A stretch of DNA of 64,000 bases from Candidatus Woesearchaeota archaeon (lineage in GTDB: Archaea; Nanobdellota; Nanobdellia; Woesearchaeales; UBA12501), in NCBI GenBank assembly GCA_030651375.1, contig JAUSFM010000009.1, positions 65,345 to 129,344 on the forward strand. The letters run 5' to 3'. Below are positions 19,212 to 47,247 of this stretch, piece after piece. Made by a program: the position numbers and the translations under genes. A model generated the notes under the pieces. The model was not told the origin of the DNA, did no database searches, and saw only the letters and a list, made by a program, of their open reading frames with translations. Numbering within the stretch: position 1 is the first letter of the stretch; every line of letters starts with the position of its first letter.

Positions 19212-19451
19212 GGCAAAAAAAGAGAAAAAGAAGCATTTAAAGCTTTAGTTTTTTCTTGATGCTCTTCAAAAACTTGTTCCCGTCAGTCCCTTTTATTTTT
19301 CTTAACAAGCGGACATTTTGGCCGAGAGGGCCATCAAATAGAACACTGTCTTCTTTCTTTTTTACATTGCGTATCTTTCGTCCGCGCGGATCAGATTCAA
19401 GTGGCATGTGATTCACCTCACTATTTGGTGGAGATTTCCGCGTATAAAAAG

Positions 19452-19694
19452 TTAGTGCTTTTGGCTGCGTTGTGCTCCGCCGGTTTTGTAGGGCGTGTGC
19501 TCTGCTTTTACCTTTTGGGACGTACTCTCTTCAGGAACGATGTCGTAAATAGTGCGTTCATCGTAGCCGCAGTCCTTGCAGACCATGCACATGATGTCCT
19601 GATATTCAGCGACGGTAATTTTTTTTGAATTGCATTTGGGACAGGTATGGATGATACTTTTGAGAAGGTCTTCGCGGTTTTTGGAGGATTCCAA
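19452..19694 (-). CDS. Small Zn-ribbon protein
   Basis: 80 aa with CPKC...CKDC paired CxxC motifs. Confidence 0.45.
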   Translation of the reverse strand: MESSKNREDLLKSIIHTCPKCNSKKITVAEYQDIMCMVCKDCGYDERTIYDIVPEESTSQKVKAEHTPYKTGGAQRSQKH

Positions 19695-19705
19695 TTTCTA
19701 CCACC

Positions 19706-19807
19706 TAATACTTAATCTCAACCAACCTTTTTTGCAAGCAAAAAAGCTTGACCAAAATGGGGGCATCCTCGCTTCGCTCGGAGCCCCGCGCGTTAATACT
19801 TAATCTC
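19706..19807. repeat. 14-bp direct repeat TAATACTTAATCTC x2 flanking two hairpin-forming segments
   Basis: Copies at 19706..19719 and 19794..19807. Between them lie palindrome CTTTTTTGCAAGCAAAAAAG and GC-rich hairpin GGGGC...GCCCC. Confidence 0.5.
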
Positions 19808-20047
19808 CACATCCCCTTCTTTTATCTTGCACTGGCAGCACAAGCGGTGCTTTTCATCAATCCCCATTTGCGCCTCTGCTTCGGTGCGTTCCGATAGGTG
19901 TTCCATGCCGCTGATTATTTCAACGTAGCACGTGCCGCACAAGCCGTTTTCGCAGCCGAACGGTATTCCCAACTCTTTGCAGGCATCCTTGATGGGCTCG
20001 CCTTCTTTGACGTCGCGCGATTCACCGCTGGAAATGATGGCTGGCAT
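19793..20047 (-). CDS. 2Fe-2S ferredoxin
   Basis: 84 aa. Cluster-ligand pattern GCENGLCGTCYV ... CCQC typical of the Fer2 family. Confidence 0.7.
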   Translation of the reverse strand: MPAIISSGESRDVKEGEPIKDACKELGIPFGCENGLCGTCYVEIISGMEHLSERTEAEAQMGIDEKHRLCCQCKIKEGDVEIKY

Positions 20048-20177
20048 GAAACGAAAAACCGTGCTGGTGGTTTATATAGGTTGCGGAAATTGATTATTTT
20101 ACTTCAACTATTTCCCTGTTTAGTTCACCCAATCTTTGATAGAAATCCATTTATAGGGGTATCACTTTTTGTTTTTT

Positions 20178-21449: not shown

Positions 21450-21596
21450 TCTCATGCCTCTTTTTTCCATTTTTTTTATCGAGTAATCTCCCCGTTCATC
21501 CCACCCACTGGACATCCCCATTCTGCCTTAAAACCCCCGATCACAGGCCATAAGCCCCAAACTCCGTAGCACTGGACACTGGACAGATGCGCGTGA

Positions 21597-21613
21597 GGTT
21601 TATATAGTACCAC
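21597..21613 (+). promoter_or_regulatory. BRE/TATA-like promoter (gaggtttatatagtacc) for the Bro-N gene
   Basis: TATA-like octamer about 25 bp upstream of the ATG at 21629. Confidence 0.4.
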
Positions 21614-21628
21614 TCCCTCAACAAAGTA

Positions 21629-22474
21629 ATGGATCAAAAAACTGCTTTGGTCGTGTTTGAAGACAAGAAAATACGAAGAATCTGGCATAATGACGAATGG
21701 TATTTCTCTGTTGTTGATATAATCGGTGTACTCATTGATACTCCCGATGCTCGGAACTACTGGAAAGTTCTCAAACATCGTTTATTAAAGGAAGGAAGTG
21801 AAGTGGTTACAAAATGTAACCAGTTGAAATTACCCGCCCCGGATGGTAAACTAAGGGAAACCGACTGTGCGAACACCAAAAACATGTTCAGAATCATCCA
21901 AACAATACCTTCTCCCCGTGCAGAAACGTTTAAGATGTGGCTCTCTCAAGTCGGCTACGAGCGCGTCCAAGAAATCGAAAATCCGGAATTAGGCCAAGAC
22001 CGCATTAAAAAATATTATGAGCTGAAAGGCTATCCCCAAGACTGGATTGACAAGCGCCTTCGGGGAATTGCTATTCGCCAAGAACTCACCGATGAATGGA
22101 AAAACAGAGGCGTTGGTGAACAGCGTGAGTACGCCATCCTCACCAATGAGATTTCACAGGCAACATTTGGCGTTCCCATCAAAACGCACAAGGAAATCAA
22201 AGGCCTTGACCCGAAATTCAAGAACCAAAACCTGCGCGACCACATGTCTGACCTCGAACTTATTTTTTCAATGCTGGGCGAACGGCTGACCACTGAAGCA
22301 GCGCGCAAGAAAGACGTTCACGGTTTTACCGAGAATCTTGAAACAGCACAAGAAGGCGGCGCGGTTGCCGGCCGCGCGCGTACCGACGCTGAAAAGACTT
22401 TAGGCATTGCTGTTGTTTCTCCAGAAAATGCACTTGATATTGTTCACCAAAAGAAGCGCATAGAAAAAAAGTGA
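21629..22474 (+). CDS. Bro-N domain protein (DinD/antirepressor-like)
   Basis: N-terminus LVVFEDKKIRRIWHNDEWYFSVVDIIGVL fits the Bro-N/KilA-N pattern. C-terminal charged domain. Confidence 0.6.
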   Translation: MDQKTALVVFEDKKIRRIWHNDEWYFSVVDIIGVLIDTPDARNYWKVLKHRLLKEGSEVVTKCNQLKLPAPDGKLRETDCANTKNMFRIIQTIPSPRAETFKMWLSQVGYERVQEIENPELGQDRIKKYYELKGYPQDWIDKRLRGIAIRQELTDEWKNRGVGEQREYAILTNEISQATFGVPIKTHKEIKGLDPKFKNQNLRDHMSDLELIFSMLGERLTTEAARKKDVHGFTENLETAQEGGAVAGRARTDAEKTLGIAVVSPENALDIVHQKKRIEKK

Positions 22475-22499
22475 TTACCCAATTGCTCGTCGCACATCG

Positions 22500-22787
22500 C
22501 TATTTTCTCACATATGTTGCGAGTGTTCTTTCAACTTGATTTCCAGGATGTCTTAAATCGAGAGGGTGACCAATCTGGCGCAGGCGTCCAACCAGTTGGC
22601 GTTTGGTATAATAACCCTCGATCGTGCCACCTTTTTGATCCCTGAACCAAATTTCGAAACCGCGCGGTTCATGATTAAGAAATGGTGGAACATATGCGAC
22701 TGAAAGTTTTGTTCTGCCCTCTTCCGTTCGTAAATACCAGCTTGTATCTGTATTTTGTCTCCAGTACGCTTGTTCCATAAGGTTCAC
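22500..22787 (-). CDS. Hypothetical protein
   Basis: 95-aa ORF, 4-nt overlap with the aEF-1beta stop. Confidence 0.3.
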   Translation of the reverse strand: MNLMEQAYWRQNTDTSWYLRTEEGRTKLSVAYVPPFLNHEPRGFEIWFRDQKGGTIEGYYTKRQLVGRLRQIGHPLDLRHPGNQVERTLATYVRK

Positions 22788-24747: not shown

Positions 24748-26832
24748 TTGATGGCGAATAAGCATTTTCAGCGCATGGACAAAGTTCTTGGCCTCCCGCC
24801 TGCGCCGCATGGTGCACCTGCCAAAGAAAAAAATGCCAGCCATCACCATCCCGAACATACCTCTCCTGCTTCACCTACTGCAACGCATAGGCATGGTTTT
24901 CTCGCGCGATTCAAAAAGCACCCATCGCATCCCTCTATTCAAAACGCTCCTGCCGGTGCTTATCCGAGTGACTTCGCACAACAGGAGCGCGCTGACGTTG
25001 ACGAGCTGAAAAAGCACCAGATTGAGCTCGATCACCTCGCACTTCAACAGCAGGCCAGAGAACAAGCTCGAGAAGAGCAAGAGCCTACCGGCGCGGAAAA
25101 ATATCTTCTCAAGGAAAAAGAAAAACTGCTCAAAGAGCGGTTCACGCTTGAAGGCGACATTGTTGCGCTCACGAAACGTCGCGCCCAGCTTGTTGGCCAG
25201 ATGCGAGTCGGCATCACTGAAGAAGAAAAAAAAGCCCGAACAAAAATTGAAAGCTCCCTGCGCGGCCTCGCGAACGAGCGCGAACGGCTCCTCACCGTGG
25301 TCAAAAATCTCAAGCCGCAGGCTGATGAGCTCCGCCGGCAGATGTCACCTAGTTTTTTCACCATCGAAAAGCATGAAAAAGAACTCGCAGCGCGCGAAGA
25401 AAAAATATCGCTTGCTGACGCACGATTGAAAAAAATCAGCGATGAGCTCCGCCACCATGAATTTGAGCTCGGAAAAAAACAGGCAGGCCTTGCCCATGAA
25501 GAGCGCGAGCTCACTGAACAGCAGCGCGCGCTCAAGGAACGGCTTGCACAGGAAAGCCAGCGCGTTGCGCTCATGCTCGCGGAAAAAGAAGCGCTGCTCA
25601 AAAACAAGTACAAAATATGGGAGCAACAGATTGACCGGCGCGAGCACGCAATCGCCGGTGCCGAGCGAAACTTCAACAAGGAAAAAGGAAAACTCTACCT
25701 TGAATTTGAAAAAGAGCACGAAAAACTCGGCCACAGCCTCGAAGAAGAGCGCACCAAGCTCTACGGCGACTTGCAGCAGCAGAAAGACCATCTCAGCCGG
25801 GATCTCGTCGATCTGGAAACCAAAAAGCGACAGCTTGAGCAGGCAGTGCTCGAGAAAAAAGAGACCATTCACGATATCGCTGAAACTGAACGCCTGCTCA
25901 ATGAAAAAGAAGAGCATCTGCTCAACAAAATCCGGATGCTTGAGACGGACGAGCATCGCCTCCACTCTCGCGAGAATGAGATTATCGGCAAAATCAAACA
26001 GCTCGAGAGCGACCAGCAGCTGCTCGATGACAAGGAAAACGAGCTCATTGACGTGCTGAAAAAACTGGATATGCGTGAAGGCGAGCTGCGTAATCATGAG
26101 CGTATGCTGAATGTCAAGGGCAACGAACTCACGGCTCGGGAGCATGACATCCAGAAAAAAATGGACGAGGCACAAGAAAAGCTTGACGCCATCAAAACGA
26201 ATAATTCACTCAAGCTGAACACCGCCGAGCTCGAAAAGGCCGCCACTAAAATCGTCGGTGAAATTGAATCTCTCGCACACAAAAAAGAATCTCTCATCAA
26301 ACAGCAAACACTCCAGCACGACATTGAGGCGCTGCAAAAATCAAAAAAACTCATTGCAGCCGAACTTGAAAAAGAGCGGGGCGCGCTCGAGCAGGAGATC
26401 AACAAGCTCGTTGCCAAAGTTGCTGACATGGAACAGGTCTTTGTCGCTGACGACCGGCTCAAGCAGCGCCAGGACTTCATGGAACGGAAAGAAGATGCGC
26501 TTGAGCAGGAGCATGCCCACATTCAGGAGCAGCTCAACCAGCTTGAAACCAACAGCATAAACGCGGTTGCAGCATTGTCATCAGTTCAGCAGCAGAAAAA
26601 TACTGCAAAAGAGATTTTCGAGGCCGACTCGCGCGAAAAAGTTGAGATCTACGCAATGATTGAGCAGGCGCGCGACGCCATTGTCGCCGGCACCTTCGAT
26701 CTTGCCAAGCAAATCTACGCGGCGATTCAGGAAGCGTACAAAACATTCAACCTTGCTGAAGCAGACCGCCGGAAAATTTACTTTGATGTGGTTGAGCTCA
26801 AGACGGACATTGAGCTCGGCGCGCTCTGCTGA
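24748..26832 (+). CDS. Large coiled-coil protein (SMC/cytoskeletal-like), His-rich N-terminus
   Basis: 694 aa. E/K/L/Q-rich heptad-like sequence throughout and a His/Pro-rich first 70 aa. Lies directly upstream of parA. Confidence 0.6.
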   Translation: MMANKHFQRMDKVLGLPPAPHGAPAKEKNASHHHPEHTSPASPTATHRHGFLARFKKHPSHPSIQNAPAGAYPSDFAQQERADVDELKKHQIELDHLALQQQAREQAREEQEPTGAEKYLLKEKEKLLKERFTLEGDIVALTKRRAQLVGQMRVGITEEEKKARTKIESSLRGLANERERLLTVVKNLKPQADELRRQMSPSFFTIEKHEKELAAREEKISLADARLKKISDELRHHEFELGKKQAGLAHEERELTEQQRALKERLAQESQRVALMLAEKEALLKNKYKIWEQQIDRREHAIAGAERNFNKEKGKLYLEFEKEHEKLGHSLEEERTKLYGDLQQQKDHLSRDLVDLETKKRQLEQAVLEKKETIHDIAETERLLNEKEEHLLNKIRMLETDEHRLHSRENEIIGKIKQLESDQQLLDDKENELIDVLKKLDMREGELRNHERMLNVKGNELTAREHDIQKKMDEAQEKLDAIKTNNSLKLNTAELEKAATKIVGEIESLAHKKESLIKQQTLQHDIEALQKSKKLIAAELEKERGALEQEINKLVAKVADMEQVFVADDRLKQRQDFMERKEDALEQEHAHIQEQLNQLETNSINAVAALSSVQQQKNTAKEIFEADSREKVEIYAMIEQARDAIVAGTFDLAKQIYAAIQEAYKTFNLAEADRRKIYFDVVELKTDIELGALC

Positions 26833-27052: not shown

Positions 27053-27862
27053 ATGAGAAAAATCTGCATTATTAACCAAAAAGGCGGCGTGGCAAAAACA
27101 ACCACCGCTGTAAACCTCGGCGTTGGTCTTGCCAAGGAAGGAAAAAAAGTTCTCATTATCGACCTTGATGCGCAAGGAAACGTCGGCACCTGCCTGCCAG
27201 CAGAGTCAAAAAAAGACCTGTACGACTTTCTGGTTGAAAACGCCGACATCCGCGAGTGCATCTCCGGCGTCACCGAAAATCTCGACCTTATCAAAAGCAG
27301 GGAAACACTGGCAAAAGCCGAGCTCATTCTCGTGGGCGAAAGCTCCCGTGAAATGACACTTCGGAGAAAACTGCAAAACCTTGCAGGCTATGATTACGTG
27401 CTGCTTGACTGCCCGCCGAGCCTCGGCCTGCTGAACCAGAACGCCATGCTGTTTGCAACCGAAGCGCTTATTCCGGCATCCACCGACATTCTCGGGATTG
27501 ATGCGCTGCGAAAAATGCGCTTTATTGTTGACAAAATCAATGACGTGTTCGGCCACAGCCTGACCATCAGCAAGGTGGTTCCCACGCTCTACGATGTACG
27601 CAATAAAGTGTGCAATACCGTGCTGAAACAAATGCAGAGCGAGTTCTACGAGCTGGTCTCTGACCCGATTCGTGTCAATGCAACGCTCAAAGAGGCGCCG
27701 GCAGAGAAGAAGTCAATCTTCGACTACGCCCCAAACTCGCGCGGTGCTGAAGACTACCGCAAGCTCGTCAAGCAAGTATTGCGCGACGAGGAGAAATACG
27801 TCAAACTTGCGCGCTCTCCCGCGTCAATGCGGATGCAAGTGAAAGAAGCGGTTATTGGATAA
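27053..27862 (+). CDS. parA: ParA/MinD-family partition ATPase
   Basis: Deviant Walker A KGGVAKTTTAVNLG and ParA motifs (IIDLDAQGN; DCPPSLG). Confidence 0.9.
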   Translation: MRKICIINQKGGVAKTTTAVNLGVGLAKEGKKVLIIDLDAQGNVGTCLPAESKKDLYDFLVENADIRECISGVTENLDLIKSRETLAKAELILVGESSREMTLRRKLQNLAGYDYVLLDCPPSLGLLNQNAMLFATEALIPASTDILGIDALRKMRFIVDKINDVFGHSLTISKVVPTLYDVRNKVCNTVLKQMQSEFYELVSDPIRVNATLKEAPAEKKSIFDYAPNSRGAEDYRKLVKQVLRDEEKYVKLARSPASMRMQVKEAVIG

Positions 27863-27951: not shown

Positions 27952-28407
27952 TTATTGATCCGGCCCATAGTATCGCCGATTGCCCGGAAGCACCATGCTA
28001 TTGAGTCGGTGTTCGCCAACAGAGGTATATTCTTTTGTTGGGGTGGGTATCTTTTCCGGCTCGTCTCCCACGGTAAAACAGCCGCCATAGAAGCATTGGC
28101 AGGTGTCTGCGTAGGAGCAGGTGCAGCGCTGGTAGCAGCCGTACTTGGTTCTGAATCGATATTGTGACGGTGTTTCATCCATCAGCCGCTTGACTGCAAG
28201 CGGTGGCTGTTCGCTGACGAGATTTCCCGTCAGGCTCTGGCTTCCTCCTGCAGGAAGCTCGTTCGTGTATTCCACCAGCACATAGTTTGTTTGTGGTGTT
28301 TCATTGATTGACTGCGAGTATTGGTAGATGCCGCCCAGCGCAACTGCTGCGGTGATTAAGACTAACAGAAGGTCACGGTGGTCACTCATTCCTCTTTTTA
28401 TACTCAT
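27952..28407 (-). CDS. Small secreted Cys-rich protein
   Basis: N-terminal TM/signal, C-terminal CxC-rich segment (CYQRCTCSYADTCQCFYGGC). Last gene of the minus-strand sigma-like operon. Confidence 0.4.
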   Translation of the reverse strand: MSIKRGMSDHRDLLLVLITAAVALGGIYQYSQSINETPQTNYVLVEYTNELPAGGSQSLTGNLVSEQPPLAVKRLMDETPSQYRFRTKYGCYQRCTCSYADTCQCFYGGCFTVGDEPEKIPTPTKEYTSVGEHRLNSMVLPGNRRYYGPDQ

Positions 28408-28473
28408 AATGTGTGTTGGTGGCTTTTTTATTTAAATAGTTTGTGGATTGGTCATTCGAAATCTACTCATTCT

Positions 28474-29826
28474 CTATTTCTGGTACAAATCAGGATATTC
28501 TTTAACAAGCGCTTGGCGCATTTTTTCCTTGGCGCGGTTTTCGAGCTGCCTCGTTCGCTCACGGGTGATGCCCAACTGGTCTCCAATTGCCTCGAGTGTC
28601 ATTGGCTCTTCGCGGAGCAGGTGGCAGTCAACAATATATTTTTCGCGTTCGTCCAGTACATGAAGTACCCCGCGAATTGCCTGATTGGCAAATGGGGCGT
28701 TGGGAGTAATCATCTCTTCCGGGGTTGGAGCATTTGACGCAACCCTTGAATATAAATTCTTGTCGTCAGCTGTTAGGCTGTCAAGAGACGCATCACCATC
28801 TGCCAAGCGCTGCTGCATGCCTCTTACTGACTTTGGCGAAACGTTAAAGTGTGCAGCAATCTCTTCAGGTGTTGCTTCATGGTCTTCATATAATAATTCA
28901 GGCATACGGCTTGTTCCTACTTTTGGCAGCAGATAATATAATTTTCTTTGCACTTGGCTTGTTCCTATCTTCACCATTCTTCTGTTCGCTATGTTGTCAG
29001 CATAGATTTGTGCTTTTATCCAATGCACGGCATAGGTGATAAAATTCTTGCCTTTTTTAGGGTCATATTTCCGCGCGGCGCTCATGGCGCCCAAATAGCC
29101 ACTGCTCACTGATTCATCCCATGCTTGTTTGTTCGTACGAGGGTGTATGCCCATCTGATGTACGACCTGATAGACAAAGTGTACTGATGACTCAACCAGG
29201 CGCTTAACCGCTTCTTTTCCCTCTTCACTGTCCGGGCCGTACGCTTGTACCGTGTGGCCCCATTCATACTGTTGCTCTTTTAATGCCTGTCTATCTTCCA
29301 AAGGTAGTTTTTGTGCACGTTGAGGCATTGGTTTTTTCAATTTCTTAACCGGAAGCCGGACAATCTCTGCTTCCGGCGGCGTTTCATAAGGTGTCCTGTC
29401 AAATGCGGTCGTGATGAAACGTTCGAGAATAAAATCAAGTGAACTGACAGACACATGCTCATTTCGTACCTCAATCTCCCCTTTTTCTTTCAGATAGTGG
29501 AGTCTCTCTCTCACATTTGTCTCTTCGAGCTTCACGCCACCAATTTTTTGGAGTACGAGATCATCAAGCGGAATTTCAGTTGCAAAGTGTTCTGCTTTTG
29601 ATGGGTCTTCTGCAATCATCTGTGCGACAATTGAGCCGACAAAATAATAGGGCTCTTGAGAAAAAGAATACAGGGGAAATGCTCGGTCTGCATAGCGTTG
29701 GAGGCCAAGAGCAATAACTGTTTCTGTTGACATGGTATCAAGAAGTGGAAGTGCTTGCAGCTCTTTACGTAGATGAGGGGGAAGTTCGCTTGAACCCTGC
29801 TTTAAAAAAGGGAGCACCGTTGCCAT
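28474..29826 (-). CDS. Sigma-70-family-like protein with new conserved N-terminal domain (paralog 1)
   Basis: C-terminal half has a sigma region-2-like segment (FITYAVHWIKAQIYADNIANRR) and a region-4.2-like HTH (MTLEAIGDQLGITRERTRQLENRAKEKMRQ). The N-terminal ~150 aa (RAFPLYSFSQEPYYFVGSIVAQ...) is shared with the two downstream paralogs. Confidence 0.75.
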   Translation of the reverse strand: MATVLPFLKQGSSELPPHLRKELQALPLLDTMSTETVIALGLQRYADRAFPLYSFSQEPYYFVGSIVAQMIAEDPSKAEHFATEIPLDDLVLQKIGGVKLEETNVRERLHYLKEKGEIEVRNEHVSVSSLDFILERFITTAFDRTPYETPPEAEIVRLPVKKLKKPMPQRAQKLPLEDRQALKEQQYEWGHTVQAYGPDSEEGKEAVKRLVESSVHFVYQVVHQMGIHPRTNKQAWDESVSSGYLGAMSAARKYDPKKGKNFITYAVHWIKAQIYADNIANRRMVKIGTSQVQRKLYYLLPKVGTSRMPELLYEDHEATPEEIAAHFNVSPKSVRGMQQRLADGDASLDSLTADDKNLYSRVASNAPTPEEMITPNAPFANQAIRGVLHVLDEREKYIVDCHLLREEPMTLEAIGDQLGITRERTRQLENRAKEKMRQALVKEYPDLYQK

Positions 29827-29894
29827 AAAGTTCTTGTGTGGTGTTTATTATTTTAAAAAGGTGTTGGTACTGATTGGCTAATCTCGTAATTTCA

Positions 29895-31193
29895 TTATTC
29901 AAAATCATCAGGATTCAAACAACGGCGAAGATTTACTAAGGCTGCCGAATGGAGTTGGCTGGCGCGAGATTCAGTGAAACCCAAAATGCGGCCGATCTCT
30001 TTTAAATTTAAATCTTCTTTGTAATACAATCTTAGAAAAATTCTCATATTTTGTTGTGTTTCCGGCCTACAGGGAACTCCTTCTGCAGTTGAAAAGGTAA
30101 TGCTATCCAACGCGCCCCACAGCATTGATTCTTCTTGGCGTAGCGCTGCCATCGTGTCAAGATAGACACTTTTTTCATCAGGTACTACTCGGGGAACATC
30201 AATATATTTTCCATTTTTATCTTTAGGCTTATCATCCAAACTCATAACCCTTGGTGCGCTCACTTGTGCTTCGTCATATTGTTCTTGTGTAATGCCGGCA
30301 CGCTCAAGAATCTGTTCGAGTGGAATATCCGTTGTTCCTGTTTCAAACAGCAATGCAGCGCGCGCATCTTCCACATCCTTGAGCCGTTCACGCACGCTGC
30401 GAGAAACCCCATCAAGGTGGCGTAAATAATCCAATATCGTGCCGCGGATGCGCATTTCTGCATACGGCCTGAAACCACCTTGTTTTGCATCAAATTTTTT
30501 TTTGGCGTCCAAAAGGCCGAGGTATCCTTCACTGATTAAATCATCAACCTCAACGCTGCGCGGCAAGCGTTGAGCAATGCGATATGCTAAACGTTTTACC
30601 AGCGGCATATACTCCGTCGCAAACGCTTCTTCTTCGCCATCGCGTATCTCTCTCCTTTTTTTCTCTTTTGTTTCTCTTGTTTCTTTCTTCGGCATTCCCA
30701 CTACTTTTTTTTCATATTCAACCGGCAGCCCATACGTTGCATACAGCACATCCCACAAGACAGCATTAACCAACTGCAGGGGAACATTCCCTTCCGGAAG
30801 AATGCCGGCTTCTGTCAGATACGCAAGCCGTTCGTCGACGGTGTTTTTGTTTAGTCCAACTCCTCCCAACTGGGTGACGGTAAATTCGCTGTGCGGTATG
30901 CCTGCGAGTGTATCGCCAGCTTGTTTTCGTAGCTCCGGATATTCCTGCAGTGCCGCAGCAATGACTGACGCGACAAAATACGTTGGCTCGCCGGAAAAAG
31001 AATACAGCGGAAAGCTTTTGTCGACTATTCTTTCCGGCGTGCCGCGCTGGAGCAATTCGGCTCTGGAATATGCCCTGAACATTCCTCCGACAGCGAGCTG
31101 ATACGCCGTTGCTGTCATAAATGTTTCTGCGAGCTGCTCCAGACTTCTATCTTGCTGCGGTGCAGGAAAGGGGAGAACGGTTGCGGCGGACAT
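29895..31193 (-). CDS. Sigma-70-family-like protein, FliA/WhiG-like (paralog 2)
   Basis: Region 2 YMPLVKRLAYRIAQRLPRSVEVDDLISEGYLGLLDAKKKFDAKQGGFRPYAEMRIRGTILDYLR. Region 4 DLNLKEIGRILGFTESRASQLHSAALVNLRR. The N-terminal domain carries the shared FPLYSFSGEPTYFVASVIAA motif. Confidence 0.8.
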   Translation of the reverse strand: MSAATVLPFPAPQQDRSLEQLAETFMTATAYQLAVGGMFRAYSRAELLQRGTPERIVDKSFPLYSFSGEPTYFVASVIAAALQEYPELRKQAGDTLAGIPHSEFTVTQLGGVGLNKNTVDERLAYLTEAGILPEGNVPLQLVNAVLWDVLYATYGLPVEYEKKVVGMPKKETRETKEKKRREIRDGEEEAFATEYMPLVKRLAYRIAQRLPRSVEVDDLISEGYLGLLDAKKKFDAKQGGFRPYAEMRIRGTILDYLRHLDGVSRSVRERLKDVEDARAALLFETGTTDIPLEQILERAGITQEQYDEAQVSAPRVMSLDDKPKDKNGKYIDVPRVVPDEKSVYLDTMAALRQEESMLWGALDSITFSTAEGVPCRPETQQNMRIFLRLYYKEDLNLKEIGRILGFTESRASQLHSAALVNLRRCLNPDDFE

Positions 31194-31205
31194 GGCATCA
31201 CTCGT

Positions 31206-33026
31206 TTATTTTTCTAACTCAAAGAGCACTTCTTTCGGTGCAACCAGTTCTTTATCAGGTACGATTTCTCGGTCAAATGTAGAGTCTAACGCTTCTGATA
31301 CGGAATGTAATGGTGCAAAGCCTCCCGGCGATTGTTCTTCTTCCTTCTCGTCATCGCCCAAGAAGTCAATGTCCTCAATGGATCCATACGTTTTGTCTGT
31401 TTCAGAAACTATTTCTGGCCTACGCCCTGTTCTTTCTTTTGGCCTATACTGCTCATCACGTTCCCGATAGAATCTTCCAATGGGAGTTTCAGTATCCGCG
31501 CACTGCATTTCCTCAACGTGATACCCATGTTTCAGCATTGCAATGACTCCTGCTTCCAAATCCTCCCGCGTTATCAGCTCACCACTTTTTTTCGGTTGTA
31601 GGTATGCTGGTTTTTTTCCGGTGACTGCACCCAATCTATCAGTAATATCCTGCTCCGGCACGAGCGTGTACTTGGGCAACCGGTCAACCAACTCGCGCGA
31701 AACATACGGCATTCTTCTGACACCATACGATTCTTCATATTCCCGCACGAGATTCAATGCCAGTGCCGCCGGCAAAATTCTCATTTCATCAAGGTCAGGA
31801 AGGGGAATCTCACACACTTCCTGTACTCGCCGAGGATCAAAATATTCAACGCCATTAAATTCTATCGGCCTGCACCCGATATACAGCTCTGACAGCATTT
31901 TTCCGATATTTCTGCCGTGCATATCAAAGCGAGATTTTGCCGCACGATACATAAGATAGCTTGCCACTTCCTGCCCCGTTATCGGATAAAATGTTTCAAG
32001 TACTTGTCGGTATGCCTCAATAAAGTCTTTCTTTTTCAGTGTTCCGGCACTGCCTCCCATGGTTCGTAACCCACCATATCTTTTCAACAATTTCTGCATG
32101 CCATAGTTAGGAAAGCCGGGGTCAATGGAGTATTTTAATGCCGTCATGACCTCAAGGGTTTGGGTGTACGTTAATTGTTTCGGTGCCTCAGCAAGTATCT
32201 GTTTTGATGTTTTTCCTCCTTCGTCCAATTCTTTTTCAAACTCCTCTAACTCTTCAGGTGTCATCTCTGCAAGTTCGTGTTCAAATTCCCTGACAAGATT
32301 TACGCCATAACTTTTATGTTTTAATGTGTTGGGTGAACTCGTTGCTCCTATGTGATGATTTGTCGCTGGTTTTTTACGCTTGTACAGAGATTTATCAGGA
32401 ATGTCTTGTTTTAATTTTTTAAGCGCGCGTTCCAAGCTTCGTGACGGCGTGCCAAAGTCACGCGTGCGCAAAGTGACTTTTCTTTGTATGATAAAGGCAT
32501 CGTCACTATTCCCTGTTTCTTCTTCTCCTTCTGGTTTTCGGTATGCTTCAATGGGCATAATATCCGCAGCCGGATGCTCGCTTTCATAGGCTGGTGGATT
32601 TCCAAATGTCATTGCAATGAAATCTCGGAGTACAAAATCTATGGTGCTTATCGAGACATTTTGGTTAGGAAGCATTGCAATCACACCATTTTCTCTCAAA
32701 TAGTCAAGCCTCTCTCTCTCATTTGCCTCTTCCAGCCGCACACCGCCAATATTCTGCAGCACGAGACGTTCCAGTGGAATTTCAGTTGAAAATAAGGGTG
32801 CCTGTGCAGGATCGTCCACCAGTATCTGCGCAACAATGGAGCCGACAAAATATTCTGGCTCTTGAGAAAAAGAATGCAGTGGAAATGCGCGCTCTGCATA
32901 GCGTTGCAGCCCAAGACTTTGCACTGTTTCTTGTGACAGCCGGTCAAGGAGACTAAATTCTTGCAGCTCTCGTAGAGTGCGCGGAGAAATTTCTTCAGGT
33001 TTGCTGAATTGAAGAACATCGGCCAT
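31206..33026 (-). CDS. Paralog 3 of the shared N-terminal domain; diverged C-terminus without obvious sigma motifs
   Basis: First ~150 aa are about 60% identical to paralog 1 (RAFPLHSFSQEPEYFVGSIVAQ...). The 609-aa remainder is acidic/charged with no clear sigma region 2 or 4. Start set at the ATG (MADVLQF); the track start 33035 is GTG. Confidence 0.55.
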   Translation of the reverse strand: MADVLQFSKPEEISPRTLRELQEFSLLDRLSQETVQSLGLQRYAERAFPLHSFSQEPEYFVGSIVAQILVDDPAQAPLFSTEIPLERLVLQNIGGVRLEEANERERLDYLRENGVIAMLPNQNVSISTIDFVLRDFIAMTFGNPPAYESEHPAADIMPIEAYRKPEGEEETGNSDDAFIIQRKVTLRTRDFGTPSRSLERALKKLKQDIPDKSLYKRKKPATNHHIGATSSPNTLKHKSYGVNLVREFEHELAEMTPEELEEFEKELDEGGKTSKQILAEAPKQLTYTQTLEVMTALKYSIDPGFPNYGMQKLLKRYGGLRTMGGSAGTLKKKDFIEAYRQVLETFYPITGQEVASYLMYRAAKSRFDMHGRNIGKMLSELYIGCRPIEFNGVEYFDPRRVQEVCEIPLPDLDEMRILPAALALNLVREYEESYGVRRMPYVSRELVDRLPKYTLVPEQDITDRLGAVTGKKPAYLQPKKSGELITREDLEAGVIAMLKHGYHVEEMQCADTETPIGRFYRERDEQYRPKERTGRRPEIVSETDKTYGSIEDIDFLGDDEKEEEQSPGGFAPLHSVSEALDSTFDREIVPDKELVAPKEVLFELEK

Positions 33027-33059
33027 GCCTTTCACCGTTATTTTCTTCTTTTAAAAATA

Positions 33060-36000
33060 TTACTCAAGCAATCTCGGCGCCATGGCTTCAACATCGTTGA
33101 CATGCGCCAATCCGAAAAGCGTTTTTCCTGCCTTTCGCAGTTGAGTTTCAAGTGCATGATATCCTGCATCAGCAGGGACACCGTGTTGTGTCAGCACCTT
33201 CATGGTTTGGTTCTCATCAAGGAATCCAACCTGTTTCATCAATTCTGCCCGCGAATCATCGTAATGCATTGCCTGCGCCCATCCTGCTGCCAGCTTCCAA
33301 TATGCTTTTGAAAATACGTCATACCCTATGAGTTGTTGATCGCCCAACTTTTCCGTTGCCATATACTCCCGGATGTATTTTTCCAACTGTAGGTCTGGTT
33401 TTTCTCCATCAAGCAACAGCGCAGGCATGATGCGGTTCACAGGAATTTTTGTTCCATCCGATTTTTTCCATGAAAACGGCTCATACAAAATCGCCGCTGC
33501 AACAAAAGGAGAAACATGATACCCTTCTCCAGTCACTGCTTTTCGCATAGTGTCAGGGAATTGGCGTATGGCCGCGTTGATGCGCCCGGGTGTTACTTGC
33601 GGAGGCATCAATTCAGCAAGATCAGAGGTGAGCACAATATCTTCAACGCCGTAGGCGTGCTCTGCGTCATTGCCTTTCAGGACAATCTGGTCGGCTGCAA
33701 ATCTGCCTGATCTTCTCATGTACTCAAAGAGCCGCCGTGAAAATTCCGGCTGATATGCGGCCACAAGCAACGCGACGGCTTCTTCTTCATTCTTCGGTGC
33801 AGTGCTCAGGCGATACTGGTACACACCATCTTCGGCGCGCGGTGTTATTCGTGCGCCGAGAGAGCCGGATCTTCGTTCTGGCTGTACTAACACCGGTGTT
33901 TCTTCTCTTTTTGAAGGTGTTGTTCCTGCGGGAGCTGGTGCAGTATATCCTGTTGTTTCTGCCGCCGATGCTGGTGCAAGTGGTGCCTGTTCTCCTGCAG
34001 GCGATGCAACCTTTTCTTCCAGCGAGGGTATCACCACTTTTGTTCCCTTGGGAAGCCCGACAACATCTTCAACCGTTGTGCGTCCCGTCAATGATTCCAA
34101 TGCATAATCAAACGCTTTGAAATAGACTTCACGTTGGCGCGCCTTGATGTCTGATGCCGTTGGAGTGCCTGATTCAGGCGTAAAAAGATTTGTTTTTGAA
34201 TACACCTGTAGAAGTTCTGGGCCAAGAATAGCGTACAGTGCCGCATGGTTTGGCGGTGCTAATGGCTCTGGCTTAAGGTCAACTTCTGCCCATAATTTAA
34301 TTTTCAATGCCGTGCTTGCGGCGATGCCTAATCCTGATGCTTTTAATCTATGGGTATTGACAAACTCGTGCAGTTTTCCAACAGCTTTTTTCGTGACTTG
34401 AGCTGCAACAACATATTCCACAACCATGTTTGGCACATACAAATGTTGGTCATCAAATCGTATCCGGCGCTGTGCTGTATTATAGTATCCTTTCTCCAGA
34501 ATTTTATGCCGTAACGCCGTTGCGAGGTACGCCATTGCGTATGTGTCGTCGAATGGATGGGTTGATGATGAAGTGGCAGGAGCGGGAACTTCTGGGCGTG
34601 CTGAAGCTGGTGAAGCAGGAGCAGGAACCGAAACAAGTACGTCATCAATTGATGCAGCTATTGGTGTTGGCGCAGGAGCTGGCGATGGTGCCGGAGGAGG
34701 AACTGGTATTGGTGAGAGAGCTGGAGATGGCGCAGGGGCAGGTCGAGTGGCTGGAGAATCTACATTCGCGGATTCTGCCGCAACATAGTCACCCAACAAT
34801 GTGCCGCCTGCTTTCATCGTGTCGAAGGCGAGGTTGAATGATTCACGGAATCGCTGGCGGACAGGCGTGGCTGGTTTAGCGAATTTTTCAACAGCGGCAA
34901 AGTATTTTTGTCCTTGTAATCTTTGGATGGCTTCAAATGGCACACCAAAAAATCCAGCTATTTCTACATCCAAATATTTCTTTACATCTGTAAGATCACT
35001 CAGATGGATGGCAAGAATATCCTCCATCATTACTCCTGCAGGTGCATCATGATGATGGCGCAGCAATGGATGCTCTTTTCCTTTCCATTGTTGAAACGCC
35101 CCATCGGTTATTCTGGTTTTTAATAGTTCACGAACTTTGTAATACCGGGGAACATCCCCACTTTTAATCGGCTTGTGGCCGGGAAGCGTAATCATATCTG
35201 TCGTCGGATCATACAGCTTTTGATAGCGTATTCCCCTTTCTATTCCCTGCGCAAGATAGCGGAGTGGGTCGGTGAGAAGTAAATCATCGGACAGAACGAA
35301 TTTTCTTCCGGCAGATGCTGCTGAAGCGGCAGGATGTGGTGGTGCGGGCGCATCCGGTGCATCCGGTTCAACCACCGTATCAATCGTTGCGGCACGAGCT
35401 GCTATTCTCTGCTCTTCTGCTTCTGATGGTGCTTCACCAGCCACTGCGCCGCCGGTAAGCTCTTGATACCATACTGACTGGTGCTCCCGCACAATCGGAA
35501 ACAGTTGAGGAAGGAGATTATTGATGCTTGGCCAGTCAAGGTCAACGGTCTTTGCTTTTTTCAGTAAACCATCTTCCACTGCGCGATGTGCAAGGGCAGA
35601 ATCAATGCCGAGAGATGCTTCCAAATCAGCGTAGGTTCTGATGCGAACATCGCCCGCTGATTTGTAAAGCCCAAAGAATTTGACATCAAGGGGAGAGAAT
35701 TTTTGATGGAGGGAAAAGGGAACATGGCCAAAAGCGTCTGCATAGACTTCGTTAACATAGCGTTGGTATGACGTATAGCGAGCGTTATATCCATCGCTTC
35801 CTTCTCGTGCTTGGTGTGGGGTTACTGCAAGCAAAGGAATATCGGCAGGGGATGATGGGGTCAGTGTTTGGCTGTGCGCAACAAGTTGTTGGTGCTCGGC
35901 ATCGTAGCCAAGCATAATTCCTTCAGCAGTGTACTGGCCGGTTTGCACGAGGTGGCTAAACACAGCCTGCGCAAGTTCTTCGAGCAGGGGACGTGAAGGA

Positions 36001-37169
36001 ACAGAACGGGGAGAGGGAGGTGGAGCAGGAGTTACAGGAGCTGGTTCAACCGCTGGTACAGATTCAGGCACGCGTGGCGCTGGTTCAGCCACGCGTGGTG
36101 GCACTTGTTCTGGTGTTTCACTTTCATATTCTTTTACCGCCTTTTCCAATGCTGTGTCAAACACTTCAAAAAATACTTTTTCCTGCGCGGTTTTAAACCG
36201 GCTTGCATCTCTTGGCTTGTATTCGTGTTTCGGATTAAATACACCTGAATTATGTGCGTTGATTATTTCATCTTCAGAAGCACCAAATAAATCTGCAAGT
36301 TCATCGAGTGATAACGATTGTGTTGGTGTTTTACCAGGAGCACTTTCGCGCCATAATTTTACTTTGAGCACGTTTCGAGCTTCTGCACCGTCGTCTTTTC
36401 GTAATCCTTTACTATCCATATACTTGTGTGCTGTTCCACCTGTTGTAAATCCTGCTAAACTTTTTGCAATGCCATATCCAACAATATGGTCCGAATCATA
36501 TCTTATTCCTTCTGCAAATTTTATTTGTTTTCGTTCACCGTCATAATAGTCTTTGCGTATTCGTTCGTATAACCGTTCGACAAGAATGTCCTGCATATCT
36601 TCAGCTGTTGTATCTTTTGGCGGCGTCGGTTCTTTGTGAAGGGGTGCCGGTGCAATTGGTTCAGGTTCACGTTCACGAATAGGCGCTGGCACCGGTACAA
36701 CTATCTCGGGTGGTGCTGCCCTAGCCGGAGCTGCTGAAGCTGCTGCACGCTCCTCTCGTTCCGCCAAACGATTTCGTGTGCGTTCTGCCAGAGAATCCGT
36801 GCTCAATTCAATAACTTCAATCTGGCGATCGGATTGTTGAACATACGTGAGAAACAACGGTTGAGAAGAATCGCGCGCTTCAACATAGTGTGCTGCCTCT
36901 GAAAAAACACCGAGCGGAATGCCATTTGCTGCAACACCGACATCTTTTCCAACTGATTTTACTTCAATGGCAGTTCGTGAGATGAAACCATCAAGGCCGA
37001 CGATGCCGGTCGATCCGTGGTATGTTTTGTCAGGTGTTCCGTGCAGTTGAATTTCGAGTGGCCTGCCAAGTAAGGCAGCAGTAACTTCGTCAATGGTTGT
37101 TGTGGCACTCGTTGCAGAATCAAGCGGTATAATGCCTGCCCTTCCTACCTTAAACCAGTGTTCAGCCAT
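33060..37169 (-). CDS. Giant modular protein: PD-(D/E)xK-like N-terminal domain, internal ~150-aa repeats, Pro/Ala-rich linkers
   Basis: 1369 aa. The N-terminus has a restriction-endonuclease-like motif GIVGLDGFIS...AIEVKSVG (D...EVK). Two related modules (ERLYERIRKDYYDGERKQIKF...VFFEVFDTALE versus LEKGYYNTAQRRIRF...VYFKAFDYALE) are separated by PAPxP-rich linkers. First gene of the operon. Confidence 0.6.
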   Translation of the reverse strand: MAEHWFKVGRAGIIPLDSATSATTTIDEVTAALLGRPLEIQLHGTPDKTYHGSTGIVGLDGFISRTAIEVKSVGKDVGVAANGIPLGVFSEAAHYVEARDSSQPLFLTYVQQSDRQIEVIELSTDSLAERTRNRLAEREERAAASAAPARAAPPEIVVPVPAPIREREPEPIAPAPLHKEPTPPKDTTAEDMQDILVERLYERIRKDYYDGERKQIKFAEGIRYDSDHIVGYGIAKSLAGFTTGGTAHKYMDSKGLRKDDGAEARNVLKVKLWRESAPGKTPTQSLSLDELADLFGASEDEIINAHNSGVFNPKHEYKPRDASRFKTAQEKVFFEVFDTALEKAVKEYESETPEQVPPRVAEPAPRVPESVPAVEPAPVTPAPPPSPRSVPSRPLLEELAQAVFSHLVQTGQYTAEGIMLGYDAEHQQLVAHSQTLTPSSPADIPLLAVTPHQAREGSDGYNARYTSYQRYVNEVYADAFGHVPFSLHQKFSPLDVKFFGLYKSAGDVRIRTYADLEASLGIDSALAHRAVEDGLLKKAKTVDLDWPSINNLLPQLFPIVREHQSVWYQELTGGAVAGEAPSEAEEQRIAARAATIDTVVEPDAPDAPAPPHPAASAASAGRKFVLSDDLLLTDPLRYLAQGIERGIRYQKLYDPTTDMITLPGHKPIKSGDVPRYYKVRELLKTRITDGAFQQWKGKEHPLLRHHHDAPAGVMMEDILAIHLSDLTDVKKYLDVEIAGFFGVPFEAIQRLQGQKYFAAVEKFAKPATPVRQRFRESFNLAFDTMKAGGTLLGDYVAAESANVDSPATRPAPAPSPALSPIPVPPPAPSPAPAPTPIAASIDDVLVSVPAPASPASARPEVPAPATSSSTHPFDDTYAMAYLATALRHKILEKGYYNTAQRRIRFDDQHLYVPNMVVEYVVAAQVTKKAVGKLHEFVNTHRLKASGLGIAASTALKIKLWAEVDLKPEPLAPPNHAALYAILGPELLQVYSKTNLFTPESGTPTASDIKARQREVYFKAFDYALESLTGRTTVEDVVGLPKGTKVVIPSLEEKVASPAGEQAPLAPASAAETTGYTAPAPAGTTPSKREETPVLVQPERRSGSLGARITPRAEDGVYQYRLSTAPKNEEEAVALLVAAYQPEFSRRLFEYMRRSGRFAADQIVLKGNDAEHAYGVEDIVLTSDLAELMPPQVTPGRINAAIRQFPDTMRKAVTGEGYHVSPFVAAAILYEPFSWKKSDGTKIPVNRIMPALLLDGEKPDLQLEKYIREYMATEKLGDQQLIGYDVFSKAYWKLAAGWAQAMHYDDSRAELMKQVGFLDENQTMKVLTQHGVPADAGYHALETQLRKAGKTLFGLAHVNDVEAMAPRLLE

Positions 37170-39748: not shown

Positions 39749-39973
39749 TTAGCGCCGCTTTTTCCGCTGTAGTCCGGTAATCTGTGCAAGTTTGGTAAAT
39801 AATTTTGATGCATGTGACGCCTCGCCCATAAATGCTTTGTTCTGCTGTTCGAGCTGTTTTTTTGTCGGGAGTTCCGCATCTTCCTGCTCAAGTTCCTGCA
39901 ATTCTTTTTTTGCAAGGGAAGGAATCTTCATTGCTGAATGCCGTTCAAGACTGCTTTTTCGCCTGTTTTTCAT
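39749..39973 (-). CDS. Hypothetical small basic protein
   Basis: 74-aa ORF, charged, no motif. Confidence 0.3.
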   Translation of the reverse strand: MKNRRKSSLERHSAMKIPSLAKKELQELEQEDAELPTKKQLEQQNKAFMGEASHASKLFTKLAQITGLQRKKRR

Positions 39974-40844
39974 GTCTGCCCTCTTTTTCTTTTTCCTCTT
40001 TGGTATCTTTAGTGTTTAGAATGATGATATTACCCCTGCCTTTTTTAATTTTTCTTATTTTTCCTGCGGTTTCAAGCTCGGTGAGGACGAGGCTGATTTT
40101 TCCCTCTGAAAGTGGCACCTGCTTGCGGAGCTCTTTTTGCGTGGTACGGCCGTCTTGTTCCTTGATAAATTCCATGACTTGCTGTGCCACTGCGTCTTCT
40201 TCTTTTTTTATTTCATTGTCTTCATCGTTTTCGGTGCTTGTTTCTTCTGTTTCATTTTCATTATTTCCCTCATTTTCACTACTTACTTTTTTCTTTTTCC
40301 GTTCCGGACTGTTCATAAACTTATAAAAAACATAAATAACTACAAGCACAATGATTCCCGCAACACCAAAAAGGGCGTACGTGGTAAACCGCTTCTCTTC
40401 GATAAAGATGTTGTCCACATCAAGCGCGCTTTCAGCGAGAATATCATCTTCTGCGGCGAAGCTCGGAAGGAGGAACAGGTCAAACACATACGATCCGTCT
40501 TCCTTGACCACGACACGCTCTTCTGTTGTCAGGAGGGATGCATTTTCTTTGTACTGCGCGCGGATAATATACTCACCCTTGTCAACAGTAAACGCGTAGG
40601 TGCCATCGGTTGAAACCATGCGCTGCTTGGGGCTGGTGCTTATCTCGGCAACGGCTTTTTCAAGTTTTTTGAGGTCAAGATTGTAAATTGTGCCGTGGAT
40701 AAGTGCCGCAGCGCTTACCATCTGAAGCGATATAAGCATAGCAAGAAGCACAAAAATTCCTATGGCGGTTATTCGCTTGGCTACCATTTTTACCCAAGGG
40801 GCTGGTCGAAGAGGGGGTATAAAAGCATTATGGTTTTCGAGCAA
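39945..40844 (-). CDS. Membrane-tethered winged-helix transcriptional regulator
   Basis: N-terminal TM helix, carboxypeptidase-regulatory-like beta domain, second TM helix and acidic linker. C-terminal wHTH (VMEFIKEQDGRTTQKELRKQVPLSEGKISLVLTELETAGKIRK). Confidence 0.5.
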   Translation of the reverse strand: MLENHNAFIPPLRPAPWVKMVAKRITAIGIFVLLAMLISLQMVSAAALIHGTIYNLDLKKLEKAVAEISTSPKQRMVSTDGTYAFTVDKGEYIIRAQYKENASLLTTEERVVVKEDGSYVFDLFLLPSFAAEDDILAESALDVDNIFIEEKRFTTYALFGVAGIIVLVVIYVFYKFMNSPERKKKKVSSENEGNNENETEETSTENDEDNEIKKEEDAVAQQVMEFIKEQDGRTTQKELRKQVPLSEGKISLVLTELETAGKIRKIKKGRGNIIILNTKDTKEEKEKEGRHEKQAKKQS

Positions 40845-47195: not shown

Positions 47196-47247
47196 TCTTC
47201 TGCGCAGGAAGCAAACCTTTTTAAATCTTTGTTTATAAGCCAATCCC

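Follow-up and report, generated by a model that had tools for sequence, protein, structure and literature searches.

Gene organization of the locus

We analysed a stretch of 64,000 nt from contig JAUSFM010000009.1 of a Candidatus Woesearchaeota archaeon, hereafter called the window. Its minus strand carries four closely spaced genes, hereafter the module, which encode a giant modular protein and three tandem paralogs named par3, par2 and par1 (Table 1). Par1 and par2 contain bacterial-type sigma-70 domains, and all three paralogs begin with the same N-terminal domain, which we call the handle. The giant gene stands first in the module, and the gaps between the giant gene, par3, par2, par1 and a small Cys-rich open reading frame (ORF) are 24, 12, 68 and 66 nt. 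A protein of the same sequence as par2 has been deposited from a 195 kb contig under the name 'sigma-70 family RNA polymerase sigma factor [Candidatus Woesearchaeota archaeon]'. The giant protein was deposited from the same metagenome-assembled genome as 'hypothetical protein Q7R76_02810', and the deposited par3 (P0123) begins at the ATG at 33026. Related loci are labelled L001-L010 and related proteins P0xxx.

The window is archaeal. The Dph2, TFS, NMD3 and HTH_10 genes, on which an earlier note on this DNA had based the archaeal origin of the flanks, were verified, and so were an archaeal-type PEP carboxylase and a DUF7343 gene. TATA-like elements were read from the sequence upstream of both the giant gene and par1, and the par2-par1 spacer with its element TTTTTAAAATA is conserved in a locus of about 89% identity (L010). 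These elements suggest native archaeal expression of the giant gene and par1.

The earlier note had also placed the small Cys-rich ORF in the module. The ORF is adjacent to par1, but it had no family match in Pfam, NCBIfam, PADLOC or PHROG, and no counterpart lies downstream of the handle gene in L002-L005 or L009. Because neither a homolog nor a conserved linkage was found for it, its membership is unsupported and we regard it as doubtful.

Table 1. Coordinates of the module, its domains and other features of the window.
Feature	Position	Strand	Size or extent	Remarks
Giant modular protein	33060-37169	-	1369 aa	ORF list; first gene of the module
gNterm domain	36780-37127	-	aa 15-130
modA copy 1	36120-36587	-	aa 195-350	HMM E=3.6e-55
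modC	35460-35972	-	aa 400-570	Unique module; HTH-looking motif LEASLGIDSALAHRAVEDGLL, by eye only
modA copy 2	34803-35258	-	aa 638-789	HMM E=7.4e-43
modA copy 3	34074-34529	-	aa 881-1032	Used for the structure model
gCterm domain	33063-33872	-	aa 1100-1369	270 aa
par3	31206-33026 (ATG) or to 33035 (upstream GTG)	-	606 aa (ATG) or 609 aa (GTG)	ORF list
par3 handle	~32526-33035	-
par3 C-terminal domain	~31446-32138	-		Conserved, non-sigma
par2	29895-31193	-	432 aa	ORF list; FliA-like
par2 handle	30669-31193	-
par2 sigma2	~30417-30617	-
par2 sigma4	~29925-30044	-
par1	28474-29826	-	450 aa	ORF list; RpoH-like
par1 handle	29332-29826	-
par1 sigma2	~29002-29199	-
par1 sigma4	~28513-28668	-
Small Cys-rich ORF	27952-28407	-	151 aa	ORF only; hydrophobic N-terminal segment
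TATA-like element ATATAAA	37212-37218	-		~45 nt upstream of the giant gene ATG; read from sequence
TATA-like element TTTTTAAAATA	29849-29859	-		par2-par1 spacer, ~28 nt upstream of the par1 ATG; read from sequence
Archaeal-type PEP carboxylase (PEPC)	4198-5655			Archaeal marker, verified
HTH_10 regulator	6429-7064			Archaeal marker, verified
Dph2	9500-10501			Archaeal marker, verified
DUF7343	39945-40844			Archaeal marker, verified
NMD3	46191-47360			Archaeal marker, verified
TFS	47890-48210			Archaeal marker, verified
Metal-homeostasis cluster	14016-18538
Low-GC island	19000-22500
HNH endonuclease	20169-21449	+
Bro-N protein	21629-22474	+
Coiled-coil protein	24748-26832	+	694 aa
ParA/Soj-type ATPase	27053-27862	+		AAA_31 2.5e-46
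S8 subtilase	49320-53390	-	1356 aa
S-adenosylmethionine synthetase	58101-59327	+
SIR2_2-domain protein	59287-60345	+

Sigma-70 regions of par1 and par2

Sigma-70 regions 2 and 4, claimed earlier for par1 and par2, were supported by matches above threshold in both proteins. In Pfam, par1 matched Sigma70_r4 at 1.4e-14 (53.7 bits, cut-off 24.1) and Sigma70_r2 at 1.2e-7 (31.9 bits, cut-off 24), and par2 matched Sigma70_r2 at 3.8e-15 (55.9 bits, cut-off 24) and Sigma70_r4 at 2.7e-9 (36.9 bits, cut-off 24.1). The sigma-70 superfamily model TIGR02937 scored 73.0 bits with par1 and 83.8 bits with par2, both above its cut-off of 42.9. The best NCBIfam match of par1 was RpoH (TIGR02392, 1.7e-42), at a score below the equivalog cut-off (145.9 vs 323.1 bits). 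That of par2 was FliA_WhiG (TIGR02479, 2.9e-49), which agrees with the FliA/WhiG-like character proposed for it earlier, though the score stays under the subfamily cut-off (167.8 vs 189.6 bits).

Residues 205-440 of par1 align to residues 48-282 of the 284 in E. coli RpoH (8hkc; E=1.9e-24), including the segment YAVHWIKAQI, and QRKLYYLLPK stands, as a partial match, at the aligned position of the RpoH box (QRKLFFNLR), which follows region 2.4. Residues 187-425 of par2 align to residues 23-245 of the 254 in the solved FliA (E=2e-32). Judged by these alignments, par1 and par2 are intact bacterial-type sigma-70 proteins with the full sigma2-sigma3-sigma4 architecture. The core-binding residues of region 2 are conserved in par2 to the same degree as in bacterial FliA. 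Par1 is substituted at the equivalents of D403, Q406, E407 and N409 (core-binding, region 2.2), with the loss of two acidic residues.

The stand-alone proteins closest to the sigma half of par2 showed 44-47% identity and are located on contigs of 68-71% GC, which look bacterial by composition alone. Since even these bacterial-looking relatives are so distant, the acquisition of the sigma factor is old. The FliA promoter consensus had 23 matches in the window against an expectation of 16.8±4.6, so it is not enriched. There were no bacterial flagellar genes within the window and no heat-shock (chaperone) gene among its scanned ORFs.

Both proteins also matched the generic phage sigma family phrog_351. 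The MzaA component of the MZA defence system was matched by par sequences through the generic sigma part alone (PADLOC 2e-9 over profile positions 456-657; 71.8 bits vs a cut-off of 800), and there were no matches to the partners MzaB-E, so a defence reading was rejected.

The handle domain and its fusions

The handle is about 165 aa long. The earlier note had described a shared N-terminal domain in three tandem paralogs, with about 60% identity between par1 and par3. The motif FPL(Y/H)SFS.EP.YFV.S is indeed present in all three, and we found 56% identity over 169 aa between par1 and par3 (E=5e-51) and 26% over 410 aa between par1 and par2 (E=1e-22). A profile search of 1.84 billion cluster representatives recovered only 24 handle proteins at E<=1e-3, 22 of them at E<=1e-10, so the family is very rare. 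Every member with a named source belongs to Woesearchaeota or Nanoarchaeia. With a tighter handle alignment nothing was found in GTDB representative genomes or viral contigs.

The fold check was also carried out. The AlphaFold2 (AF2) model of the handle is confident (mean predicted local distance difference test, pLDDT, 87), and it had no convincing neighbour in the PDB, while the search of viral folds in BFVD was empty. In its fold the handle did not resemble TFB, TFE or other domains that bind RNA polymerase (RNAP). A short conserved motif, [VL][LI]xF[Px], is located at the extreme N-terminus of the handle.

The handle is joined to very different cargo. Fusions were found with a FliA-like sigma (P0124), a group-3 sigma (P0125), sigmas of extracytoplasmic function (ECF) type (P0127, P0130, P0134-P0137), RpoD-like sigmas with region 1.2 (P0131, P0133, P0139), longer sigmas (P0128, P0129) and the non-sigma domain of par3 type (par3/P0123, P0132, P0141). 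In two members the handle is C-terminal: in P0138 it follows a sigma-54-type enhancer-binding protein (EBP) of the AAA+ class with HTH_8 (Sigma54_activat+HTH_8), and in P0140 another sigma. One further protein, P0143, joins the handle to a modA module of the giant protein (modA E=8e-25). The sigma cargo thus spans groups 1, 3 and 4. Because these groups diverged anciently and every fusion is most like the bacterial group of its cargo, the handle must have been attached repeatedly to independently acquired factors. Repeated fusion to such varied cargo argues for a generic adaptor role that does not depend on the cargo. The handle of par2 is under strong purifying selection against its ortholog of about 89% identity in L010 (omega = 0.125).

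Some of the cargo retains the contacts of the bacterial machinery. P0139 (L005/L006, 10001-12001) is identical to E. coli sigma-70 at 51 of 73 positions in region 2, keeps all five core-binding positions (D403/Q406/E407/N409/M413) and is near-identical in region 4.2. The GAFTGA loop, which contacts sigma-54, is intact in the handle-tagged EBP of L004 and in the EBP of L008. As a separate observation, in P0139 a Cys replaces the W433-equivalent Trp of the -10 melting wedge (YAICWIRQ vs YATWWIRQ).

Two other relationships of the handle were considered and rejected. The handle and modA as divergent copies of one domain gave an hhalign probability of 0.15. The par2 handle (aa 30-109; 30867-31106) matched concatenated RecA chains in the PDB with a whole-chain summed phmmer E of 5.7e-8. 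We treated this match as spurious, because no single stretch passes the threshold, and the six-fold repetition within the target probably produced it.

Par3

Neither a Pfam scan nor hhalign revealed a sigma domain in par3. Its handle is clear (HMM match E=5.7e-53), and its C-terminal domain is common to P0132 and P0141 with 31-37% identity. Par3 as a degenerate sigma, or as an assembly of giant-protein domains, was rejected, for hhalign comparison with sigma, gCterm and modA gave probabilities of 0.13-0.34. An apparent match of par3 at E=1e-49 was an artefact, the profile alignment itself having contained par3.

The giant modular protein

The domains of the giant protein were delimited by local iterative hidden Markov model (HMM) profiles. 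Its parts, among them three modA repeats of about 150 aa each, are joined by five Pro/Ala/Ser-rich linkers. The protein had no match in Pfam, NCBIfam, PADLOC or PHROG, and a single homolog (P0122) in an index of 5.8 billion proteins. Searching with a full-length alignment of the family recovered the query alone, and low-complexity words from the linkers probably filled the candidate list, so that the spread of the family is under-sampled by this search.

Members of the family carry between zero and four modA modules on their Pro/Ala-rich linkers. The gNterm domain is conserved in the homologs of L003, L004, L005 and L009 (E from 1e-10 to 1e-47). The closest relative of modA copy 2 is aa 181-352 of the L003 giant protein (37% identity). 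No other copy of modC was found with local profile searches. The gCterm domain, which had no detectable relative in the PDB or Pfam, is the most widely conserved part of the family. The giant family showed no similarity to any anti-sigma factor in Pfam, NCBIfam, PADLOC or PDB sequences.

The model of modA copy 3 (pLDDT 91.6) had fold matches dominated by DNA-bound winged helix-turn-helix (HTH) domains of the MerR/Xis type, and the modA sequence carries an HTH_17-like 'ELAxLFGxSxxxI' motif. From this model, the giant protein probably binds DNA through its winged-helix modules.

Linkage of handle genes and giant-family genes

A gene containing gCterm stands next to a handle gene, on the same strand and with gaps of 24-93 nt, in seven of the eight sequenced loci (the window, L001/L003, L002, L004, L005/L006, L008 and L009), and gCterm is present in all seven of these partner genes. 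The unlinked locus is L007, in which the handle gene lies near a Bud32-like kinase gene. The linked proteins share just 20-40% identity, and the neighbouring genes differ in each locus.

L003/L001 encodes, in this order, a stand-alone sigma, a 1569-aa giant homolog with four modA copies and a handle-FliA-like sigma. In L004, beside the genes for ribosomal P0/P1/L1 and TrmB, a handle-tagged EBP precedes a 736-aa giant homolog. In L005/L006 (L15e, NurA, RtcB) a 693-aa homolog with two modA copies is followed by a handle-RpoD-like sigma, and in L009 (Topo VI, eIF-1A, RIO1) a 643-aa homolog with one modA copy is followed by a handle-sigma. L008 (TrmB, FtsZ) has an 843-aa GHKL-like protein ending in gCterm and then a par3-type handle protein. 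L002, a contig of 3.4 kb in which no archaeal context was identified, encodes a giant C-terminus and a handle-sigma, with a DUF3368/UPF0175 toxin-antitoxin pair downstream. L010 is a 2 kb contig without context, and it preserves the order par3, par2, par1 in a sister lineage.

In L003 (13413-20463) the archaeal RNAP operon (rpoH, split rpoB, rpoA', rpoA'') lies 1.6 kb downstream, with an MNT/HEPN-like toxin-antitoxin pair between; L003 is the only locus in which we saw this arrangement. A frameshift divides the handle-FliA-like sigma gene of L003 (10520-11832) into ORFs of 75 aa and 358 aa, but the gene is intact in L001 (379-1692; 437 aa, P0003), which comes from another sample. Either the assembly is wrong at this point or the frameshift is a variant within the population. 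L008 encodes a second sigma-54-type EBP (3326-5632; 768 aa) without a handle, 4 kb from the par3-type handle gene. It has a C-terminal extension of about 400 aa with repeated excisionase-like, HTH-looking segments.

Composition, codon usage and mobility

The earlier note had reported no GC discontinuity across the module. This holds for bulk GC, which is 0.46-0.49 in the module and fits the window, and the tetranucleotide profile of the module also agrees with it (r=0.905, compared with 0.84-0.96 for 5-kb windows). It does not hold for GC at third codon positions (GC3), which is 0.37-0.43 in the four module genes versus 0.50-0.60 in 12 flanking genes. The relative synonymous codon usage (RSCU) of the four genes correlates with that of host genes at 0.45-0.63, while 11 of the 12 flanking genes reach 0.73-0.83 in a leave-one-out comparison and one reaches 0.49. 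The codon-usage island is sharp-edged, because its immediate neighbours, RtcA and ParA, are host-like.

Between par2 and its L010 ortholog (110-1396), synonymous divergence (dS) is 0.41 in the handle half and 0.10 in the sigma half (Fisher p=7e-5). Heterogeneity of dS along one gene suggests mosaic recombination. Apart from this, the amino-acid changes between the two orthologs cluster at par2 residues 310-338, in the region 3.2 linker. Toxin-antitoxin genes often neighbour the module and its chromosomal surroundings differ in every genome. All of this suggests that the module has moved or recombined among DPANN genomes.

Neither an integrase nor a replication, capsid or other structural gene was found in 18-40 kb of the window. 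No att-like direct repeats flank the module, where matches were at chance level only, and three scans revealed no relatives of the module on IMG/VR viral contigs. A viral reading is unsupported: PHROGs gave generic sigma matches only, and BFVD and IMG/VR were empty.

Other features of the window

Two plus-strand genes converge with the module. The first encodes a 694-aa coiled-coil protein with no family match and the second, which follows it, a ParA/Soj-type ATPase. Both are probably chromosomal and outside the island because their codon usage is host-like.

The window also has an island of low GC (0.37-0.40 vs about 0.47) with an HNH endonuclease gene and a Bro-N gene. The Bro-N protein matched PADLOC PDC-S13, a candidate defence family, at 2e-116 and phrog_15286 at 2e-87, and its codon usage bears no relation to that of the host (RSCU r = -0.05). 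The island probably represents a mobile or defence insertion of its own. A SIR2_2-domain protein, possibly encoded by a defence gene, lies in another low-GC patch at 59-61 kb (GC about 0.39). Beside it is an S-adenosylmethionine synthetase of bacterial/eukaryal type (S-AdoMet_synt N, M and C domains), another bacterial-type gene here. Most archaea use a distinct archaeal-type S-adenosylmethionine synthetase. The metal-homeostasis cluster comprises a DtxR-type repressor, a multicopper oxidase, a ZIP transporter and an Nramp transporter. The S8 subtilase has an I9 propeptide and, at aa 920-1038, a weak match to the Nup98-type autopeptidase (E=1.6e-4).

A proposed handle-and-scaffold module for sigma factors

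The earlier note took sigma factors to be unexpected in archaea, and this view is outdated. Rinke et al. 2013 (cited in PMC6126073) were the first to report them, in single-cell genomes of DPANN, and Castelle et al. 2021 (PMC8204110) described sigma-70 genes as 'particularly prevalent in Woesearchaeota' and ruled out mis-binning (fam00359). As they are already published for DPANN and Woesearchaeota, sigma factors in an archaeon are not new. Castelle et al. detected no anti-sigma factor for the sigmas of DPANN and considered it unclear how these are controlled. A 2025 survey (PMC12316311) found sigma-54 EBPs absent from 380 archaeal proteomes. Our literature search found no description of the handle domain or of the giant partner, so the handle, its varied fusions and its conserved modular partner are apparently undescribed.

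We tentatively propose, as a reading that is quite possible but still short of probable, that these genes form a Woesearchaeota/Nanoarchaeia-specific handle-and-scaffold module of transcription factors, a control system or partner for archaeal sigma factors. The handle would be a docking domain that binds the modular giant protein. This scaffold, probably DNA-bound through its winged-helix modules, would hold, position or release the handle-tagged factors, and in this way it may fill the partner or anti-sigma-like control role that is missing for DPANN sigma factors. The sigma moieties may act in the archaeal cell as sequence-specific DNA-binding regulators, produced from archaeal TATA-type promoters, and the module is probably mobile among DPANN genomes. 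The conserved linkage agrees with such a scaffold, and P0143, which joins the handle and modA in one polypeptide, supports it as a Rosetta-stone fusion. Among the three explanations offered in the earlier note, an undescribed system is the best supported, because the pairing of handle gene and giant-protein gene is conserved; exapted regulators and a virus or plasmid module are possible as well.

Several observations weigh against this proposal. The evidence for a handle-giant contact, gene adjacency and one fusion protein, is indirect. No giant-family gene accompanies the handle gene P0131 on the 4.2 kb contig of L007, and the numbers of modA copies and handle proteins do not track each other (3:3 in the window, 4:1 in L003, 2:1 in L005, 0:1 in L004). 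Promoter consensus sequences of FliA, RpoH and sigma-70 type do not exceed the shuffled expectation within the window. The sigma half of par2 has an omega of about 0.68, a value from the single close comparison with L010 that includes few substitutions in sigma2/sigma4 and does not show purifying selection. Finally, the contact residues for bacterial RNAP core are kept in P0139 and the GAFTGA loop is kept in the EBP fusion, and a role as mere DNA binder leaves this retention unexplained.

The retention would be expected if the targets were bacterial polymerases, and this keeps another explanation alive. Tagged sigmas of groups 1, 3 and 4 and the EBP could be delivered into a bacterial host or prey, where they would bind bacterial RNAP core or sigma-54 holoenzyme and rewire transcription much like the sigma factors of phages; the handle would then serve for export or for binding a chaperone, with the giant protein as chaperone or translocation partner. 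Regions 2 and 4.2 of P0139, the GAFTGA loops of L004 and L008 and the FliA-like par2 all fit canonical bacterial contacts, and the pairing of a handle with an adjacent partner gene is reminiscent, by analogy only, of effector-chaperone pairs. Castelle et al. 2021 (PMC8204110) left bacterial hosts open for some DPANN and noted murein-degrading surface proteins in Woesearchaeota. But this lineage has no known bacterial host, the window contained no secretion-system genes, and neither par1-3 nor the giant protein showed a signal peptide or hydrophobic segment when inspected by eye, with no predictor run. The giant partner has the look of a DNA-binding protein, two members of the family carry the handle at the C-terminus, and two acidic residues for core binding in region 2.2 are missing from par1, so we consider delivery into bacteria quite unlikely. 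It is unlikely too, if a little less so, that the handle, alone or via the scaffold, docks on the archaeal transcription machinery (Pol II-like RNAP, TBP, TFB or TFE) and plugs the DNA-recognition modules of the sigmas into archaeal initiation as promoter-specificity or activator subunits, which would amount to a hybrid form of initiation. Such an adaptor would suit a lineage-specific domain under strong purifying selection whose cargo consists of transcription-initiation factors or unknown domains only, whose N-terminal [VL][LI]xF[Px] motif resembles a docking peptide and which in L003 is encoded 1.6 kb from the archaeal rpoH-rpoB-rpoA operon. The RNAP adjacency occurs in one locus only, though, and the handle resembles neither TFB, TFE nor RNAP-binding domains in fold. 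The tight giant linkage and the P0143 fusion would be left unexplained, and so would the same tag on an AAA+ EBP with a GAFTGA loop.

The module may also be the cargo of a DPANN mobile element (plasmid, virus or island) that relies on sigma-like regulators and a multi-HTH protein of its own for maintenance or gene expression. This is compatible with the scaffold model, and by itself we regard it as rather unlikely. The sharp codon-usage island, the differing neighbourhoods often beside toxin-antitoxin pairs and the heterogeneous dS of par2 all speak for it, as do a ParA gene and the low-GC HNH/Bro-N island nearby. Against it, the ParA and coiled-coil genes are host-like in codon usage, the low GC3 could reflect low expression, and the searches described above yielded no integrase, replication or capsid gene, no flanking direct repeats, no IMG/VR relatives and generic sigma matches only in PHROG and PADLOC. 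An assembly or binning artefact, in which a bacterial fragment was joined to an archaeal contig, would account for the bacterial origin of the sigma moieties and for the 68-71% GC contigs of the closest stand-alone FliA-like relatives. The earlier note had named a chimera as what would refute its claim, and the module recurs in archaeal contexts of five further independent assemblies (L003, L004, L005/L006, L008, L009), which makes at least six with the window. Since the sigma halves are in frame with a domain confined to Woesearchaeota/Nanoarchaeia, the module recurs in independent archaeal assemblies and the nearest bacterial sigma is only about 45% identical (44-47%), chimerism is effectively excluded. 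Bulk GC and tetranucleotides that match the window and the archaeal TATA-like elements point the same way, Castelle et al. 2021 (PMC8204110) excluded mis-binned proteins as the source of this family, and an artefact is extremely improbable.

Ever since the first DPANN sightings it has been asked what bacterial sigmas do in archaea whose transcription relies on TBP/TFB and a Pol II-like RNAP. At least one set of DPANN sigmas belongs to a conserved system and is not an isolated leftover of horizontal gene transfer. The handle, gCterm and the par3-type C-terminal domain are three new domains, and the proposed contacts are testable: between handle and scaffold, between scaffold and DNA, and between sigma and the archaeal or bacterial polymerase. 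The result also bears on the question of whether DPANN symbionts interact with bacteria. If the sigmas should act on the polymerase of a bacterial host or on the archaeal one, this would be a new cross-domain mode of transcription control.

Comparison with known systems

The DPANN sigma-70 homologs published by Rinke et al. 2013 and Castelle et al. 2021 are likewise bacterial-type, encoded by Woesearchaeota and not mis-binned, and no anti-sigma factor or function is known for them. Compared with these, the proteins described here have in addition a shared N-terminal domain, fusions of that domain with both sigmas and a sigma-54-type EBP, and a linked giant protein. With the bacterial group 3 sigma factors FliA/sigma-28 and RpoH/sigma-32, par2 and par1 respectively have the full sigma2-sigma3-sigma4 in common. 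Unlike these relatives, par1 and par2 bear an N-terminal extension of about 180 aa, and their host is expected to possess only a Pol II-like RNAP.

Phage sigma factors and sigma appropriation, as by AsiA/MotA of T4, also combine accessory redirectors of transcription with DNA-binding adaptors, a likeness by analogy only; in contrast to them, the module is without viral hallmark genes, relatives on viral contigs or a BFVD neighbour of the handle. The best structural neighbours of the modA model are MerR/excisionase domains (Xis, TorI, BldC, RacA), several of which were solved bound to DNA.

Bacterial sigma/anti-sigma pairs (ECF with anti-sigma; FliA-FlgM) resemble the module in the tight, co-oriented linkage to a non-enzymatic partner that persists despite divergence. 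The giant partner differs from an anti-sigma factor in that it shows no similarity to any anti-sigma domain, is very large and modular and looks DNA-binding. The contact, too, would be made differently, through the appended handle rather than through sigma2/sigma4, and the same handle is carried by cargo that is not a sigma factor.

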